Sequence record: MK295204
Origin: Shigella phage vB_SdyM_006
Length of the DNA: 64,000 nucleotides
Strand: one strand, 5' to 3'
Each line of letters begins with the position of its first letter. Position 1 is the stretch's first letter. The translations under genes were made by a program, and so were the position numbers. Of the stretch, positions 33,624-62,519 are shown one piece after another. Below the pieces are notes generated by a model. That model made no database searches. It had not been told where the DNA came from and saw only the letters and a program-made list of their open reading frames with translations.

Positions 33624-33869
33624 TTATTTCAATGTAACAATATAATGACGAACAGCTTTACGTGCATTAGAACTTAAATGCTTAGCATATTTTAAATTAT
33701 CATTTTCGATAAGCTCTTGGTGAAGATTTTTTTGTTCTGGATTTAAGTGTTTAAAACCTTCAAGAACTTTAAGTGCTTCAGCCAGAACATCGATTGATGC
33801 ACCATAGTTTTCATGGCCATTTTGGAAAGAATTACGTTGGATATCTAAAATTGTTTTTACAAAAGTCAT
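33624..33869 (-). CDS. hypothetical protein
   Basis: 81 aa ORF upstream of gene 31 region. Confidence 0.4.
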   Translation of the reverse strand: MTFVKTILDIQRNSFQNGHENYGASIDVLAEALKVLEGFKHLNPEQKNLHQELIENDNLKYAKHLSSNARKAVRHYIVTLK

Positions 33870-38358: not shown

Positions 38359-38533
38359 AATAATCCTTATTCTTTAATCAAAGAATTCATAAATTCGATA
38401 AAAGCTTCACGTGCATCATTGAGTTGCTCAGCCGTTTTATTATATTCGTCGTAATCAGTCACATGTCTAAGAGATGTTCCTAATTGTTCGAATTGGCTAA
38501 ACAACCCATATAAAATATGAAACTCTAGAGGAG

Positions 38534-39247
38534 TCATTTTAATTCCTGCTCAATTTTGTCAATGATTGCATAAATTTCATGTTTAACTGGAGTAACGGTT
38601 TTACCTGATTTTTTAAACAACTTAGAAGCTTCTTCAGGATTTGTTTTATACAATTTTTTAGCTTCTTCTTTGATGATAGTGGCTTCTTCAACTGCAGACA
38701 TAAGTTCTTTAAGCTTTTTACGAAGATCTTCGATATCATTATTACATGGAACAAAATCTTTTTCTAAAATCATAAAACGATGCCATTGAGTAACAGAAAT
38801 TGGGTCAGTTAATTTAAAATCTGATATTTCTGTTTTACCAGGAATAATGATATCATTATCAGTCTCAGCAACTTTGACTACAACATGAGTCACTTTGTCA
38901 TCTTCAATAGTTGGAATAAACCGAGGTCTTAAATCAGGATTTGCCTTTTTAGTAGAATGCAAAGAAGCAAATCGTTTAAACCGAGTATCTGTAATACTAT
39001 GGACAAACGAAGCATCATTAAGCATATATACGTTCTGGTCATCTTCAAGAATGTGCACATCACCTGGGAGATGTAACATATATCCTGACGATGAAGCAGG
39101 GCTAGAATTGAAACCTGGTAAATGATTAACTTCAGAATAATCGATCTTAAAAAGACCATCAGATCTTCGTGTTGCATTGACAGTAATAGGGAACACAATA
39201 CCTGCCATGCTTGCAAAACCATTATGGCTTGTTAATTTAATTTTCAT
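38534..39247 (-). CDS. hypothetical protein (shares N-terminal motif with next gene)
   Basis: 237 aa; N-terminal F-x-S-x2-GI-x-FPI-x-V-x-AT motif shared with 39250..39471. Confidence 0.5.
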   Translation of the reverse strand: MKIKLTSHNGFASMAGIVFPITVNATRRSDGLFKIDYSEVNHLPGFNSSPASSSGYMLHLPGDVHILEDDQNVYMLNDASFVHSITDTRFKRFASLHSTKKANPDLRPRFIPTIEDDKVTHVVVKVAETDNDIIIPGKTEISDFKLTDPISVTQWHRFMILEKDFVPCNNDIEDLRKKLKELMSAVEEATIIKEEAKKLYKTNPEEASKLFKKSGKTVTPVKHEIYAIIDKIEQELK

Positions 39248-39249
39248 AA

Positions 39250-39471
39250 TTATTCCTCTATAACTGAAAACTCACGTGGTGTAAAATAATAAGAATCTGT
39301 TGATGCGGATTTGTCAAATCCTTTTAATTTAATGAACTGAGATTGGGCAACGTTGATACAAGCGCTGTTATCACAATCAGGTGTAGCATAGACTTCAATA
39401 GGAAACTGAATACCTTCTAAAGAAGTAAACCTGCCATCACATAATATTTTTACTTTTATCATAATTTTCAC
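39250..39471 (-). CDS. hypothetical protein (paralogous N-terminal motif)
   Basis: 73 aa. Confidence 0.4.
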   Translation of the reverse strand: MKIMIKVKILCDGRFTSLEGIQFPIEVYATPDCDNSACINVAQSQFIKLKGFDKSASTDSYYFTPREFSVIEE

Positions 39472-39745
39472 ACTTAGGTTCGTTTAAGTCAACACGGTAA
39501 TAACATACCATAGTTTTCATTTGTTGTAAATATCTTTTTACATCTTCAAGCCAAATTCTTAAATCTTGAGAGTCTTTATAAGATAAAGCAACTTGTGGGC
39601 CGTCTTTATTAATGACTTTCCATTTTACATCTAATGGCTGAACAGGAGCTGGCCATTGTGGATGGATTTTAGGCACTTCCTGTGGTGCAGGAACAACGCT
39701 ATTGCACCCGGTTAATAACATAATAGGAATTATCAGATGTTTCAT
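39437..39745 (-). CDS. o-spanin (outer-membrane lipoprotein)
   Basis: Signal peptide ending in lipobox LLTGC, proline-rich N-terminal region; overlaps i-spanin gene by 4 nt. Confidence 0.7.
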   Translation of the reverse strand: MKHLIIPIMLLTGCNSVVPAPQEVPKIHPQWPAPVQPLDVKWKVINKDGPQVALSYKDSQDLRIWLEDVKRYLQQMKTMVCYYRVDLNEPKCENYDKSKNIM

Positions 39746-40101
39746 TTCGTTTCCTCTACAACACTATCAGTGAACTTTTTAAACGAATTATTAATAAGTT
39801 TAGACACTAGTCCAGGTTTAGATTCAACGATATGTTCACGAGCTGCATCTTTTTTTAGTTTATAAGTTATGCTATTGGTTTCCGTCTGAATAGAACTAAA
39901 CTTATCGTTTAAAGCGTTGTATTGCTTTATTTGATTATTAAGTTTTTCTTTATAATCATCAAATTCTGTATTAAGCTTTTGTAGTGCTTTTTCTGTTTGA
40001 TCTAGTTTTGTTGCATTTTCTGTGTATAAATGGAATAATACCCCATTACTCAAAATAAGAACAAGACCAATAACTAAATAAATTTTTGTGTTCATTGACA
40101 C
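39742..40101 (-). CDS. i-spanin (inner-membrane, coiled-coil)
   Basis: N-terminal hydrophobic helix IYLVIGLVLILSNGVLFHL followed by coiled-coil-like periplasmic region; translationally coupled to o-spanin. Confidence 0.7.
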   Translation of the reverse strand: MSMNTKIYLVIGLVLILSNGVLFHLYTENATKLDQTEKALQKLNTEFDDYKEKLNNQIKQYNALNDKFSSIQTETNSITYKLKKDAAREHIVESKPGLVSKLINNSFKKFTDSVVEETK

Positions 40102-40592
40102 ACCTTAAAAATTGTGTTAATGATGTCGTCAGAAGATAATCCTCTGAATAGAATATGATTTCTTGATGTTGAAGAACTACAGGAAAAAGAAGGGATTAAA
40201 GAAGCCATATCATCGTATGTTAGTTCTTTATGCATAATACCAAGTTGGTGTTTTTCATAAATCGGGTCAACGATAATATAGCATTTATGGCCATTGATAT
40301 GAACATTAGGCTGTGAAATATTAATAAAGACCTCTGCATCAGTGTTAGCTAAATAACTTTCTAAAAATGACTTCATTTCTTGAACAGCTTCAGGTAATTT
40401 TTCGCGTCGTTCTTCAGAAACACGATTATTATATTCTTTTTGTTTGAGTGATTTAGATTTATTACGACCTAAAGCTGCTCTTAAATCAGACAAATAGCCT
40501 ACGCGTTTAGAGCCTTTCCAAACAGATAACCCATCATGACGGTCTCCAAAAGAAGCCACTACCATATCATTTGTAATTAGTTGTAAATCCAT
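40092..40592 (-). CDS. hypothetical protein (position and size of T4 alc)
   Basis: 166 aa vs 167 aa for T4 Alc; positional inference only. Confidence 0.4.
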   Translation of the reverse strand: MDLQLITNDMVVASFGDRHDGLSVWKGSKRVGYLSDLRAALGRNKSKSLKQKEYNNRVSEERREKLPEAVQEMKSFLESYLANTDAEVFINISQPNVHINGHKCYIIVDPIYEKHQLGIMHKELTYDDMASLIPSFSCSSSTSRNHILFRGLSSDDIINTIFKVCQ

Positions 40593-40649
40593 GTTAACCT
40601 CTCATTTTCAAATTTGTCTTACTATATTATAAAAATGAGAGGTTGTAAA

Positions 40650-43375: not shown

Positions 43376-43476
43376 TTTAATCCTTAATTTTTCTTTTTAC
43401 AAGGGTCCCATCTTTTACTGCTTTGTCATAAGCAATTTTAATTAATCGTAGACGTTCCACTTTAGAATTTCTAATT

Positions 43477-43510
43477 TTGTTAAAATCTATCTCGGACGAA
43501 TCCGAGATAG
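43477..43510 (-). terminator. terminator after nrdA
   Basis: 10-bp stem CTATCTCGGA-CGAA-TCCGAGATAG then T-run on minus strand. Confidence 0.65.
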
Positions 43511-43515
43511 TTGTA

Positions 43516-45756: not shown

Positions 45757-45767
45757 TTTATTCCTTT

Positions 45768-46379
45768 CTAGATATAATATTGATCTATTTTTCTAATATG
45801 GCTTTTAATAAACGAACTTAATATGGATGACAATTTTATAGAATTTTCTACATTGTAACACCCCATAATCTTTTTATCACAAGATGCTAAAGAAAACATA
45901 TAAACAGGTTCTTTGTTTTCATCATTTAAATAATTAACAATAGATACAGCAGAAGAAAAATGGTTATTGTTTTTATCATCTGTTAAAAAATCTTTGATAC
46001 ATATTTCTGTCTTAGATTCTGCATGGTATTTCCAACTATCTAGATATTTCACAAGTTTATTAAGCTTAGTTTTATAATGGGATAAAATTTTATCTGCACA
46101 TATTTTATTAGGGGTTTTACCGTATGAATAAAAACTTGGTGTGTGTAAAATAATATGTCTAGTCCCGAAATTAAATCCTATAGATGCCACTAAATTTATA
46201 GGTCTATTTTTATTTCTTATCTTTTTGTATTCTAAAGAAACAGATTCTGATAAAACAATCCATTCGGATTCGTTAATTTCATAAAAAGCATTATTTGATA
46301 TTTCTGTGGAAATATCAGTTTTATTAATATACATAAAAGTCTCACAAATATATTTTATCATTAAACAGTTTATTAACAA
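45768..46379 (-). CDS. hypothetical protein
   Basis: 203 aa ORF between nrdA and td; no nuclease motifs recognised. Confidence 0.5.
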   Translation of the reverse strand: MLINCLMIKYICETFMYINKTDISTEISNNAFYEINESEWIVLSESVSLEYKKIRNKNRPINLVASIGFNFGTRHIILHTPSFYSYGKTPNKICADKILSHYKTKLNKLVKYLDSWKYHAESKTEICIKDFLTDDKNNNHFSSAVSIVNYLNDENKEPVYMFSLASCDKKIMGCYNVENSIKLSSILSSFIKSHIRKIDQYYI

Positions 46380-46626
46380 CTTCGGCTATTATATCACCAT
46401 GGCATGGCTTAGGATAACATGTGCAACCAAGTCTAGAGCCTCTTAAAACTTCAAGATGATGTTTATTTATTTCGCCAGTTTTTATTTTATTAAGAAAATA
46501 TGGGATAAACCTTTTGATGTTTTCTTCTCTAGTTCCATCTTTAAAAGGATTACCCCACATTGTCCCTCTTTGAATATTAATATCAAAGTCAGAGTTATAT
46601 TTATTAACGACTCTACAATGTTTCAT
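46342..46626 (-). CDS. small Cys/His protein, possibly DUF4326-like
   Basis: 94 aa; motifs WGNPF and LGCTCYPKPCHGD; family assignment from memory, not verified. Confidence 0.45.
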   Translation of the reverse strand: MKHCRVVNKYNSDFDINIQRGTMWGNPFKDGTREENIKRFIPYFLNKIKTGEINKHHLEVLRGSRLGCTCYPKPCHGDIIAEVVNKLFNDKIYL

Positions 46627-47143: not shown

Positions 47144-47995
47144 CTATACACTGAAAGGGTATTTAATAGCAGGGTGATATTGATAATCTTGTACTTCAAA
47201 ATCATCTACAGTGACCCAGGTTTCAATATCTTCTAATGATCTGATATTATCATTAATAATAAGTTTAGGTGCATTAAACGGCGTCCTAGACACATGCTCT
47301 GGGACTAAAGATAATTGGTCTTCATAGATATGGGCATTTGTTATCTTATGAAACACTTTACCAGGTTTATTTGCTGTAATCTGGGCCATTAAATGTAAAA
47401 GCACATAACACTGAATCATATTAAAATTTAAACCTAATGGGACATCACATGATCTTTGGTATGAAGTTAAATATAAAGTCCCATTAACGAGAGAAAAATT
47501 ATGGGTATGCATACAAGGACGTAAACAACCTAAGTCAAATTCTCCTGGATTCCAGAACGTTAGGATTTCTCCACGATCATCAGTTCCTTCACTTAAATTA
47601 TCATAGATTTTTCTGAGTTGGTCAATAGTGCTATTAGGTCCTTGCCATTGTCGTCCTTGAACACCATAAACACGGCCCATATCGTCTTCACCTTTGCGAT
47701 GAGGGTTATTTAGCCATGCTTGATTTTCATTAGCGTTTGCATTCCATGTATTACAACCAATTTCACGAAATTGCGCTGCATTGTCGTAACCACGAAGATA
47801 TCCTAACAGTTCAGCAATAGCAGCTTTATAAAAGCTTTTACGAGTTGTATCAATTGGGAATTCAGAATATTCTAGGTCGGCATTAATAATAACACGACAA
47901 AATTTTCCAGTTCGTTTATTATATACGTCTTGGCCTTCATTATAAATCTTTTTTAATAATTGTTGATACTGATTCTTTTCTAAGATCTTTTCCAT
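47144..47995 (-). CDS. td: thymidylate synthase, uninterrupted
   Basis: 283 aa; active-site region [11 protein letters not shown] and C-terminal [10 protein letters not shown]; single contiguous ORF. Confidence 0.95.
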
Positions 47996-58703: not shown

Positions 58704-59168
58704 ATGGCAGATCTTAAAAGAGGAAGTACTGCTGGAGGAGAATTAATCCTTACACAAGGTAATTTTCCATTAATTCCAGTAGGAAATTCCTTATATTTTA
58801 ATAAGCATAAAGTCTATACCGAACACGATAAGCCTACAGCAGAAGAAGTTGATTCTGTTTCGGCATCTAAAGGTGGAGAATTTAAAGAAAGAGTAATTTT
58901 TAAAGAATTACAGGTAGGGAAACAAGACCCTTTAATTATTAAAGACCATTCTATAGCTGGGACTGAAATAATTCTTAAACAATTAGAAATTAAAAACTTA
59001 GAAAAATCATTACTAGTTCTTAATCCTGATAATCCAGAATTACTTCAAGTTCAATCAATGAAAACAGATAGATTGGTTTTAGACACAATATCAACTCAAC
59101 CTAATCATGCAGTTAGATATGACCAAGTGGTTCTTGTTGGAGATATTATAGATTTTGGAGAATTCTAA
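58704..59168 (+). CDS. 36: long tail fibre distal small subunit
   Basis: Start at ATG 58704 (MADLKRGSTAGGELILTQGNFPL), matching the T4 gp36 N-terminus; AAGGAG SD and TATAAATA late promoter upstream. Confidence 0.85.
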   Translation: MADLKRGSTAGGELILTQGNFPLIPVGNSLYFNKHKVYTEHDKPTAEEVDSVSASKGGEFKERVIFKELQVGKQDPLIIKDHSIAGTEIILKQLEIKNLEKSLLVLNPDNPELLQVQSMKTDRLVLDTISTQPNHAVRYDQVVLVGDIIDFGEF

Positions 59169-61261
59169 TGGCAAAAATTCCAAGAATACAATTTAAAAGA
59201 ACTAAAACACCAGGAACAAAGCCTTCAAAAGATATTTTAGCTGAAGGTGAATTAGCAATTAACTTAGCTGATAGAACTCTTTTTACAAAATCCGGAGATG
59301 ATATTATTGATCTTGGCTTTGCTAAAGGCGGCACAGTTAATGGAGATATTAATCAAGAAGCTGGAAATTTTACAACCAATGGGTCAATGACTGCTAAAAC
59401 ATACATTGATATAAAAAATAGCTTAAATGACAAAAAAATATTTAGGCTTTCTTATGAAGGAGATCGTGGCGCTTTATTGTCTGTTAATGAAGGCGACAAT
59501 AAATGGAAAACTATACTTGTTCCATTAGACGAAGATGGGACTAAAACTATAGCTACTCGTGAACACGTAGGAAAAATGGTTTCTACTAATGATGGAGAAA
59601 CCAAATTAAGGGCTCCAAACCAGACTAACTTATTGATTGCAAAAGACAATAAAGAACTTGTTTGGTACGATGGATCCACTAATAATAGAATGGTTAATTT
59701 TGGTGCAGGTGGTTTAGATTTAGCCCACAAAGGTAGTGATATTGTCGGAGTTAGTTTATACAAAAAAGATGGCAATCAGGTTCGAATAGAAACCCATGCC
59801 CATTCATCGGCCCTTATGTTAGCTTTTGCATATAAAGATTCTGCAGGAAATAATTCATATGTAATCAATATGCCAAAAGAAAATGGTATATTAGCTACAC
59901 AAGGATGGACAGATGCCAAATACTATAAAAGGAATGACAGCCCATCGTTCAAAGAATACGTTAATGTTTTTCATAATACCACAGGGTCTTATACTCAATT
60001 AGGATATGGTAATGCAGGTGCTACATGGTCAGTTAACACAGGCGGCAATTGGTATATATTAAAACATCCCCTAGCTAATGGTACAGTTGCTTCTCAAGAA
60101 TGGAGTCAAGCTACGCATTACAATAAATCAGAATCTGATAATAGATATGTTAAAATTGGTATAGGTGGTGGTTACCCACTACATAATTATAATGCAGGTG
60201 GCCATGGCTATTCTACTTGGAATGAAAAAGGTGTACGTCAAGCTTATATAGGATTCGCAAATGATGGTTCTACAGAATTTACCATTAGTAACGAAAAAGG
60301 ATCTAATAGTACTATTAACCTTAAAGCGGGTAATGTTTTAGTTAATGGTGTAACTATCGCCTCTCAAAACTGGGTAATTTCTAATTTTTATAAAAAAACA
60401 GAAACATATAATAAATCTGAAATTGATGGCAAAGTTAATGGACGATTAACACAGGCCCAAGGTGATGCTAGATATTATACTAAAACCGATTCTGACGGTC
60501 GTTACTTACGAATGAATATCACCAACAAAACTAGTATGCCGGTATTCTATAGAACAGCAAACTATGGAGATGATGCAAACCAACGTGATTTAAATTACGC
60601 AGGATTTTATAGAACTAACGGATTAAACAGCTTACCGAGTCTCATAATTCATGTTCCTCATAGTAGTGGGCTAGCTCATGGAAGAGGTATAGGATTTGAC
60701 TACGGTTCAGCCGGATATGGGATTTATACTTATGCATATGATGCGAATGGAAAATATCAAGGTCAAAAATCTATCGCATTGAGCGAGTATCACTATTCAA
60801 AAACTGTATCAGATGATAGATATTACCAGAAGTCTCAAACATATTCTAGAGCAGAAGTTGATTCTAGAGTAAACGGAAGATTAACTCAAGCCACGGCGGA
60901 TGGAAGATACGCGTATAAAGGTGGTGCTAATGCTCAAAACTTTGGTGCTAACATAGTTGATGCTGCTGACGTTAATATTCGTTCAGATTTAACTGTAAAA
61001 TCAAATTTAGTTAAAATAAATAATGCTATACAAACTGTTAAAACATTAACAGGGTATACATATGATTTAAAATTAAACGATAATACATATAAACAATCTG
61101 CAGGTATAATAGCACAAGATGTACAAAAAGTTCTACCAGCATTAGTTACAGAGGACTCTTTAGGATTATTATCTGTTAATTATAATGGTTTAACTGCAGT
61201 TCTTGTTAATGCTATAAATGAATTATCTGAAAGATTAGAAAGATTAGAACGAGGTGTATAA
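59168..61261 (+). CDS. 37: long tail fibre distal subunit with C-terminal intramolecular chaperone domain
   Basis: 697 aa; N-terminus MAKIPRIQFKRTKT-GT-PS; D-x-RY fibre repeats; C-terminal ~92 aa with SDLTVK Ser-Lys dyad and GIIAQDVQKVLPALV...AINELSERLERLE typical of peptidase S74 chaperone domains. Confidence 0.85.
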   Translation: MAKIPRIQFKRTKTPGTKPSKDILAEGELAINLADRTLFTKSGDDIIDLGFAKGGTVNGDINQEAGNFTTNGSMTAKTYIDIKNSLNDKKIFRLSYEGDRGALLSVNEGDNKWKTILVPLDEDGTKTIATREHVGKMVSTNDGETKLRAPNQTNLLIAKDNKELVWYDGSTNNRMVNFGAGGLDLAHKGSDIVGVSLYKKDGNQVRIETHAHSSALMLAFAYKDSAGNNSYVINMPKENGILATQGWTDAKYYKRNDSPSFKEYVNVFHNTTGSYTQLGYGNAGATWSVNTGGNWYILKHPLANGTVASQEWSQATHYNKSESDNRYVKIGIGGGYPLHNYNAGGHGYSTWNEKGVRQAYIGFANDGSTEFTISNEKGSNSTINLKAGNVLVNGVTIASQNWVISNFYKKTETYNKSEIDGKVNGRLTQAQGDARYYTKTDSDGRYLRMNITNKTSMPVFYRTANYGDDANQRDLNYAGFYRTNGLNSLPSLIIHVPHSSGLAHGRGIGFDYGSAGYGIYTYAYDANGKYQGQKSIALSEYHYSKTVSDDRYYQKSQTYSRAEVDSRVNGRLTQATADGRYAYKGGANAQNFGANIVDAADVNIRSDLTVKSNLVKINNAIQTVKTLTGYTYDLKLNDNTYKQSAGIIAQDVQKVLPALVTEDSLGLLSVNYNGLTAVLVNAINELSERLERLERGV

Positions 61262-61895: not shown

Positions 61896-62519
61896 ATGGA
61901 TAAAGGCTTTTTTCTAAGCCTGCTTGATACATTGTTTAAAGACGCCGATGGAAAATTAATCCTTTGGCGTCTTCTTTCTATAGGAGTACTTGGGATTGGA
62001 TGTTTTTTATATGTCGCTAGAAATGAATTTTTGGAATTATATAAAAACACTAGATATGAGGCTTATCAACAAGTTCAAAAACAAGAAAGAGAACTTAAAT
62101 TTGAAAAAGCTGTTGTAGACCAATTGCAAATAGTCCATGTATCATCTGAAGCAGAGTTCAGTGGAATAACTGAATTTAGACCTGTAGGATTAAATTATTT
62201 TTTTGATTTAATTGCTTATGAAGGGAAACTTCCTGAGGAATTAAACTCAAAAAATTTAGGAGGCTGGCCTGTAGATAAAACTGCAGAAGAATATATCAAT
62301 CATATGAATGGACATTATTATACATCAACAGAACATTTTAGATTACCAACAAGGACTAAAATAGAAAATAAATGGTTGTTTTCTTGTCCTTATTATAATT
62401 TAAATAATAATTATGCCGGGAGTATATTTATGATGTGGCCTGAAAAACCTGAGATAAATGAAGATAGACTTAATATTATATGTTCTCAGGCTTCCAGGAC
62501 CATAGGTAGGACTAAATAA
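61896..62519 (+). CDS. t: holin (T-type)
   Basis: 207 aa; N-terminal TMD and blocks LQIVH-SSEA-FS, FRP--LNYF-D-IAYEGKLP, CPY-NL-N-YAG-I-M-W match T4 holin T. Confidence 0.9.
   Translation: MDKGFFLSLLDTLFKDADGKLILWRLLSIGVLGIGCFLYVARNEFLELYKNTRYEAYQQVQKQERELKFEKAVVDQLQIVHVSSEAEFSGITEFRPVGLNYFFDLIAYEGKLPEELNSKNLGGWPVDKTAEEYINHMNGHYYTSTEHFRLPTRTKIENKWLFSCPYYNLNNNYAGSIFMMWPEKPEINEDRLNIICSQASRTIGRTK

Follow-up and report, generated by a model that had tools for sequence, protein, structure and literature searches.

Two short open reading frames occupy positions 39437-40101 of the window, by which we mean the whole 64,000-nt stretch of DNA that was analysed. The question raised by this locus is whether the two genes encode a two-component spanin, a device with which phages disrupt the outer membrane of the host when infection ends, and, if so, to which of the known types the pair belongs. 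Gene structure, membrane-anchor signals, helical prediction, homology, synteny and conservation form the basis of our answer. With high confidence, we assign the genes at 39437-40095 to the T4-type two-component spanins, in a Proteus T4-like phage that is nearly identical to phage phiP4-3 (Straboviridae, Bragavirus; NC_055737.1). The pair is already known, being a member of the T4 PseT.3/PseT.2 family that is annotated in a near-identical Proteus phage. The coordinates of all features are collected in Table 1.

Table 1. Features of the spanin locus, its neighbours and other lysis genes in the window
Feature	Coordinates	Strand	Description and evidence
i-spanin gene (PseT.3 homologue)	39742..40095	minus	117 aa from ATG 40095; ORF, PHROG 739, BLASTP, RefSeq gp043
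o-spanin gene (PseT.2 homologue)	39437..39745	minus	102-aa lipoprotein precursor; ORF, PHROG 812, BLASTP, RefSeq gp044
ATGA junction i-spanin/o-spanin	39742..39745	minus	AAATGAAAC; the 4 nt common to both ORFs
ATGA stop/start junction alc/i-spanin	40092..40095	minus	CAATGAAC; alc ORF ends at 40092; RefSeq gp042/gp043 coordinates share 4 nt
i-spanin N-terminal transmembrane segment	40027..40083	minus	residues about 5-23, IYLVIGLVLILSNGVLFHL, after MNTK
i-spanin periplasmic long helix alpha1, heptad pattern	39820..40026	minus	residues about 24-92; AlphaFold2 and heptad test
i-spanin conserved C-terminal helix alpha2	39745..39819	minus	after KPG break; motif KPGLVxKxINxSFxxF
o-spanin lipoprotein signal peptide and lipobox	39704..39745	minus	MKHLIIPIMLLTG / C14; PROSITE lipobox core pattern matches residues 4-14
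o-spanin proline-rich linker	39632..39703	minus	residues 15-38, 7 Pro; low pLDDT, no secondary structure in model
o-spanin segment with periplasmic C81 and C92	39470..39505	minus	counterparts of T4 PseT.2 C87 and C98
alc, inhibitor of host transcription	40092..40592	minus	Pfam PF17527 ALC, E 1.2e-39; PHROG 1253, E 1.2e-70
Candidate sigma-70-type (T4-early-like) promoter	40621..40649	minus	TTTACA-17-TATAGT, 10/12 consensus matches; in the 57-bp rnlA-alc gap
T-type holin	61896..62516	plus	tblastn with phiP4-3 holin, 99.5% identity; Pfam Phage_holin_T, E 1.8e-48
rIII-like lysis-inhibition accessory gene	33627..33869		

Gene organization and start codons

As seen from the ORF listing and the sequence, two minus-strand ORFs fill the interval, with the i-spanin gene upstream and the o-spanin gene downstream. 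An earlier note on this DNA, made from the sequence alone, is refined here with respect to strand, since both spanin genes are encoded on the minus strand. The same note had placed the start of the i-spanin gene at 40101, where an in-frame GTG opens an ORF (39742..40101) of 119 aa, two residues more than the ORF from ATG 40095. We regard ATG 40095 as the more likely start because the sequence AAGGTG lies 5 nt upstream of it, because it shares an ATGA with the stop codon of alc, and because it corresponds to the RefSeq start of gp043. With GTG 40101 as start codon, the AAGG of this Shine-Dalgarno-like AAGGTG would be just 1 nt away, compared to the 5-nt spacing for ATG 40095. Pm5461, a related Proteus phage, has an ATG at the position of GTG 40101, and the 119-aa form is the less likely, still conceivable, product. 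Taken together, the spanin genes and alc are chained by two ATGA junctions, an arrangement that suggests translational coupling. At its other end, the o-spanin gene shares 26 nt, comprising codons for its C-terminal tail, with the next gene.

The pair had previously been described as overlapping. This is correct insofar as four nucleotides, ATGA, are shared, but it is wrong as a class label. In the "overlapped" architecture, represented by LysB/LysC of P2, the o-spanin gene would begin deep within the i-spanin gene, in a different frame, and run on past its end, with tens to hundreds of bp in common. Although the annotated coordinates do share 4 nt, nothing beyond the ATGA is common to the two genes, and no codon of either protein lies within the body of the other gene. 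Moreover, the o-spanin frame contains TGA and TAG stops 7-8 codons upstream of ATG 39745 and no start codon in between. Therefore, the 4-nt junction is the sole possible arrangement. T4 serves as the paradigm of the "separated" spanin architecture, and even a pair with an 8 bp overlap was classed as "separated according to our criteria" (Kongari et al. 2018, PMC6139136); the junction in T4 is likewise 4 nt long. We consider an overlapped architecture extremely improbable, and the pair is "separated" under these published criteria. The embedded class (lambda Rz/Rz1 type) was also considered and rejected, as 39437..39745 is not contained within 39742..40095.

The upstream gene encodes a predicted membrane-anchored helical protein

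The N-terminal segment of the i-spanin has a Kyte-Doolittle mean of 2.22 over 19 residues and is modelled as a helix by AlphaFold2; no second hydrophobic segment is present in the protein. Based on the positive-inside rule, with Lys4 on the N-terminal side of this segment, the i-spanin is probably a type II membrane protein (N-in/C-out).

For the remainder of the protein, an AlphaFold2 model with an 8-sequence alignment as input (mean pLDDT 82) predicts a helix spanning residues 3-92, in which the pLDDT reaches 94, a break at Lys-Pro-Gly (residue 93), and a further helix spanning residues 94-116. The best 28-residue heptad window is LQKLNTEFDDYKEKLNNQIKQYNALNDK, with LLFYLQYL at the a/d positions. 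Its score, a simple home-made measure and not that of COILS or Pepcoil, was reached by 4 of 500 sequences obtained by shuffling the periplasmic domain; on the same score, T4 PseT.3 was equalled by 7 of 500. All Pfam matches of the i-spanin are sub-threshold, and all are to coiled-coil families. The description of this protein as a transmembrane domain followed by a coiled coil is thus borne out by the hydrophobic segment, the modelled helices and the heptad test. The i-spanin contains no Cys.

The downstream gene encodes a probable lipoprotein precursor

The o-spanin begins with a signal peptide of 13 residues, with a Lys in the n-region and an h-region of about 8 residues that includes a Pro, followed by Cys at position 14. 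The classical PROSITE positional rule asks for a Cys at positions 15-35, and Cys14 thus comes one residue too early. In E. coli, Asp at position +2 keeps lipoproteins in the inner membrane (Lol avoidance). Because the +2 residue of the o-spanin is Asn15 rather than Asp, the protein is predicted to be sorted to the outer membrane. The sequence LTGC fits the lipobox consensus [LVI][ASTVI][GAS]C (Kongari et al. 2018, PMC6139136). With the match to the PROSITE core pattern and the 7 Pro in residues 15-38, the earlier description of a lipoprotein with an LLTGC lipobox and a proline-rich region holds. In the mature o-spanin, proline accounts for 9 of 88 residues.

The structural model of the o-spanin is of low confidence (mean pLDDT 64) and contains a short beta-hairpin and a long helix at residues 56-83. 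A profile search with the o-spanin alignment against solved structures returned no match at E ≤ 0.1. The sole hydrophobic segment is the signal peptide, with the Kyte-Doolittle maximum at residue 3, and the C-terminus (NYDKSKNIM) is polar. A unimolecular spanin of the T1 gp11 type, which combines an N-terminal lipobox with a C-terminal transmembrane domain, was rejected on these grounds, as the o-spanin has no transmembrane domain in its polar C-terminus.

Each of the two proteins has one block that stands out as the best conserved in its alignments: KPGLVxKxINxSFxxF at the C-terminus of the i-spanin and RIWLxDVKRYxxxxKxMxCYYR in the o-spanin. Judging from this conservation, the two blocks may form the interface between the partners.

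Family assignment and conservation

Scans of both spanins against Pfam and NCBIfam found no family above threshold. Therefore, the family assignment was based on PHROGs and direct BLASTP comparisons. The i-spanin matched PHROG 739 ("Rz-like spanin") with an E-value of 6.7e-27 and the o-spanin PHROG 812 ("Rz-like spanin") with an E-value of 3.4e-38. In BLASTP, the i-spanin was 35% identical to T4 PseT.3 over 95 aa (E 6e-13), and the o-spanin was 43% identical to T4 PseT.2 over 99 aa (E 4e-26). The o-spanin and PseT.2 match at the lipobox Cys as well as at both C-terminal Cys.

Conservation was assessed on a set of 14 loci obtained by scanning viral contigs with the o-spanin alignment. Leaving aside the near-identical phiP4-3, their proteins share 20-84% identity with those of the window. 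Each of the 14 encodes an o-spanin with a lipobox and, upstream of it, an ORF whose N-terminus is hydrophobic (Kyte-Doolittle 1.57-2.44). The Cys pair of the o-spanin is always 11 residues apart, in each of the 14 loci as well as in T4, and the lipobox Cys is invariant in the alignments. The ATGA junction was found in 13 of the 14 loci, and the i-spanin lacks Cys in 13; in the most divergent locus, L019, the spanin genes overlap by 16 nt. Homologues of the o-spanin were detected by tblastn in 1767 phage records. The majority belong to T4-like phages that infect enterobacteria, Vibrio or Aeromonas; some others, with about 33% identity, come from T5-like phages about 110 kb in size.

These data bear on the reading that both ORFs arose by chance, or through erroneous gene calling, in a phage genome rich in AT. 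In favour of it, both ORFs are short and go unrecognised by Pfam and NCBIfam. However, the strong E-values in the PHROG and BLASTP comparisons, the 1767 phage records and the retention of the pair in 14 of 14 loci speak against chance. The conservation data refute this reading, and we assign it a probability close to zero.

The same alignments help to judge whether the 102-aa PseT.2 homologue is non-lipidated owing to its short signal. In that case, it could be a soluble or inner-membrane-tethered partner, or the pair could be decaying, and another factor would disrupt the outer membrane. The position of the Cys at residue 14 and the h-region of only about 8 residues with a Pro would fit such a scenario. 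Nevertheless, the Lys in the n-region, the hydrophobic core and LTGC all agree with the lipobox consensus, Cys14 aligns with the lipidated Cys of PseT.2, and the 13-residue signal is kept in the o-spanin of Pm5461, at about 80% DNA identity. Decay is contradicted by the conservation of the whole o-spanin, the invariance of its functional Cys residues and the intact partner gene, which together indicate purifying selection. A non-lipidated or decaying o-spanin is therefore very unlikely, and we retain its assignment as the lipoprotein of a T4-type pair. That the short signal itself reflects an atypical route of export or lipidation is conceivable but very unlikely.

Comparison with the spanins of T4 and lambda

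PseT.3 and PseT.2 of T4 complement a lambda Rz/Rz1 double amber mutant; PseT.3 is devoid of cysteine, while C87 and C98 of PseT.2 are both essential for lysis (Kongari et al. 2018, PMC6139136). The supplementary tables of that study contain neither a Proteus phage nor an LLTGC lipobox.

The window pair resembles its T4 counterpart in many respects. The i-spanin is 117 aa long in both phages and has an N-terminal transmembrane domain, a long helix, the KPG break, a conserved C-terminal helix and no Cys. In both o-spanins, a lipobox is followed by a linker and then by a C-terminal helix, which carries two Cys spaced 11 residues apart. The T4 genes pseT.3 and pseT.2 share exactly 4 nt, again ATGA, and alc is located directly upstream in T4 as in the window. 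In neither case is the spanin pair linked to holin t or to the endolysin.

There are also differences. The o-spanin signal peptide is shorter in the window (Cys14 compared to Cys17 in T4), the linker is richer in proline, and a C-terminal tail of 9-10 residues (NYDKSKNIM) follows the last Cys. Whereas alc and the i-spanin gene meet in an ATGA in the window, they overlap by 10 nt in T4. Finally, the partner endolysin in phiP4-3 is an M15 peptidase and not the T4 lysozyme. These differences leave the classification as a T4-type spanin unchanged.

In its functional logic, the pair corresponds to Rz/Rz1 of lambda, combining a predicted type II inner-membrane protein that has a helical periplasmic domain with a small, proline-rich outer-membrane lipoprotein. 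At the level of sequence, only a weak profile match was obtained, between the window i-spanin and PHROG 214 ("Rz-like spanin", E 2.7e-4). The lambda genes are embedded, whereas the window pair is separated, and lambda Rz has periplasmic Cys residues and two coiled-coil helices, in contrast to the Cys-free i-spanin of the window. Rz1 is unstructured, while T4-type o-spanins contain a helix (PMC6139136).

Genomic neighbourhood and expression

The gene order nrdB-denA-rnlA-alc-i-spanin-o-spanin-...-pseT is the same as in T4, with denA encoding the GIY-YIG endonuclease II. The earlier note had recognised the T4 arrangement, in which the spanin genes lie next to pseT. Synteny with and homology to T4 support the arrangement as such, but immediate adjacency to pseT does not apply. 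Three unrelated ORFs (70, 237 and 56 aa), occupying 1078 bp, separate the o-spanin gene from pseT in the window, compared to pseT.1 alone in T4, and the constant immediate neighbour is alc on the upstream side. The 70-aa ORF was considered as a PseT.1 orthologue and rejected, since it shows no similarity to T4 PseT.1.

Upstream of alc, a candidate promoter was found that reads GTTTACA, including the base preceding the -35 hexamer, followed by a 17-nt spacer and TATAGT. In a scan of the region for sigma-70 promoters and terminators, the number of sites was not above shuffle expectation. The candidate might drive alc and the spanin genes, and we treat it as a lead only. The T4 late-promoter motif TATAAATA occurred 15 times in the window, against 16.9 expected occurrences, and on the minus strand it was absent from the 11 kb upstream of the spanin pair. 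Thus, a dedicated late promoter finds no support. The pair sits in a block of early/middle-oriented genes and not in a late lysis cassette, the timing of transcription being suggested by the parallel with T4. From the ATGA chain with alc, the T4-early-like promoter sequence and the lack of a nearby late motif, one might propose that the spanin complex is installed early and has a second, pre-lysis role, for example in remodelling the envelope, in lysis inhibition or in signalling related to superinfection. We judge such a role to be highly improbable. As the gene order is the same in T4, the early position of the spanin genes is a known feature and not a discovery.

Other lysis genes and a model for spanin action

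The T-type holin gene is located 21.8 kb from the spanin pair, in agreement with the earlier estimate of more than 20 kb. Likewise, the statement that no endolysin gene is visible in the window was upheld: tblastn with T4 lysozyme and with the M15 endolysin of phiP4-3 gave no match in the window. No muralytic Pfam domain was detected among the window-specific ORFs that were scanned, and the colinear part of the phiP4-3 annotation lists no endolysin. A search elsewhere in the genome had been recommended for the endolysin, and in phiP4-3 it is encoded by gp248 (108238-108609), about 78 kb from the spanin genes. The product of gp248 matches Peptidase_M15_4 (E 9.9e-15) and is not a homologue of T4 lysozyme. 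The phiP4-3 endolysin has been counted, together with the enzyme of RB49, among the orthologues of M15 L-alanoyl-D-glutamate peptidases (PMC10487532). Proteus Bragavirus phages have thus kept the T4 spanin module at its T4 position despite an M15 endolysin and replaced downstream genes. It is a modest example of how, in T4-like phages, the three lysis functions are not linked genetically and can be swapped independently of one another.

For this pair, we infer localisation, complex formation, disulfide chemistry, membrane fusion and transcription timing, and the proposed pathway would be as follows. By homology with T4 and lambda, the i-spanin would enter the inner membrane by its N-terminal transmembrane helix, with its long helical domain reaching into the periplasm. 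The o-spanin would be exported, lipidated on Cys14 and cut by signal peptidase II, and its final location would be the outer membrane, in the inner leaflet. The KPGLV..INxSF helix of the i-spanin might then bind the RIWLxDVKRY...CYYR helix of the o-spanin with its two Cys, and the resulting complexes would bridge the periplasm, threaded through the peptidoglycan mesh. Upon opening of the inner membrane by holin T, the M15 L-Ala-D-Glu peptidase endolysin, encoded outside the window, would degrade the murein. Once the murein is gone, lysis would be completed by collapse of the spanin complexes, which would bring about fusion of the inner with the outer membrane.

Related Proteus phages

The window aligns colinearly with phiP4-3 in reverse complement, over roughly 5.7-69.8 kb and with a few indels. 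A 2.7-kb query around the spanin pair was 99.5% identical in DNA sequence to phiP4-3; for Proteus phage SJ_PmiM the figure was 98.4%, and for Pm5461 and PM2 about 80%. In phiP4-3, the corresponding genes gp043 (354 nt) and gp044 carry the RefSeq name "Rz-like spanin", and their coordinates and 4-nt junctions are as in the window. The earlier note had expected confirmation rather than novelty from this locus, and this annotation of near-identical phage genes proves it right. The o-spanin of phiP4-3 is 99% identical to that of the window; after the lipobox, the window has Asn15 where phiP4-3 has Thr.

The homologous genes of Pm5461 (gp158 and gp159, NC_028762.1) are also annotated as "Rz-like spanin" and show the same architecture as in the window, with protein identities of 84% for the o-spanin and about 69% for the i-spanin. 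The i-spanin of Pm5461 is annotated from a later Met, which truncates the transmembrane domain. In the GenBank versions MG696114 and KP890823, both spanins are still labelled hypothetical proteins. The gain for annotation is that these GenBank entries and the truncated start of the Pm5461 i-spanin could be corrected.

Lysis genes and their relatives

The endolysin of Proteus phage phiP4-3, a near-identical reference, is encoded outside the part that corresponds to the window (positions 38438..38809 of the phiP4-3 locus L020, equivalent to NC_055737.1 108238-108609). Its product is a 123-aa Peptidase_M15_4 protein, an L-Ala-D-Glu peptidase type of endolysin like those of RB49 and T5 rather than an e-type lysozyme as in T4. 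In this lineage, a T4-type holin and spanins thus operate alongside an endolysin of another class. At a distance of about 5.6 kb from the spanin genes, the window also carries an rIII-like accessory gene for lysis inhibition, whose product had no match in the Pfam scan.

Homologues of the o-spanin were also found in T5-like phages with genomes of about 110 kb (the five records H25-H29), where they are annotated as o-spanin/i-spanin. They share about 33% identity with the query over 90% of its length, indicating that T4-type and T5-type o-spanins are detectably related. In the related Proteus phage Pm5461, the annotated start of the i-spanin gp158 (locus L005, 2801..3139) is an internal Met that gives a protein of 112 aa and cuts into the transmembrane segment. 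An in-frame start upstream of this Met (MSMNTK...) yields 118-120 aa, in agreement with the family. Judging from these reading frames, the start codon of gp158 is probably mis-annotated in the public record.

Reading frames downstream of the o-spanin

The o-spanin gene is directly followed by a 70-aa ORF, with which its 3' end shares 26 nt, and then by a 237-aa ORF. When the two products were compared, the 70-aa ORF showed 31% identity (E 2e-8) to the first ~70 residues of the 237-aa ORF, and both touched phrog_13367 and phrog_20482. At the sequence level, the 70-aa ORF is a paralogue of the N-terminal part of its neighbor, and the arrangement looks like a partial tandem duplication. In T4 this position is occupied by pseT.1, but a comparison with T4 PseT.1 showed no similarity between the two proteins, which are thus unrelated. 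Pm5461 lacks the 70-aa ORF.

Features of the window outside the spanin pair
Feature	Position	Strand	Remark
rIII-like gene	33627..33869	-	98.8% identical to phiP4-3 gp058
237-aa ORF	38534..39247	-	
70-aa ORF	39250..39462	-	
203-aa ORF	within 45768..46626	-	between nrdA and td block
94-aa DUF4326 protein	within 45768..46626	-	E 1.1e-20
Thymidylate synthase (td)	47144..47995	-	single uninterrupted 283-aa ORF
Distal long-tail-fibre gene	59168..61261	+	697-aa ORF

Differences from phiP4-3

In phiP4-3, td is annotated as two pieces flanking a homing-endonuclease gene (gp031-gp033). Since the window has an uninterrupted ORF and its alignment lacks about 1.05 kb of phiP4-3 sequence at td, this gene appears to be an intron/homing-endonuclease-free variant. 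A second mobile-element presence/absence difference between these near-identical phages is the nrdB-nrdA gap, which is only 140 bp (43376..43515) in the window but holds a 633-bp homing-endonuclease gene (gp038) in phiP4-3. The two phages also differ in the stretch from nrdA to the td block (alignment gap 45766-46341), where the 203-aa ORF of the window had no match in the Pfam scan. Within the distal long-tail-fibre gene, a patch of ~730 bp (60104..60838) gave no megablast-level alignment to phiP4-3, whereas its flanks are ~98% identical. This patch is probably a host-range-determining mosaic segment.
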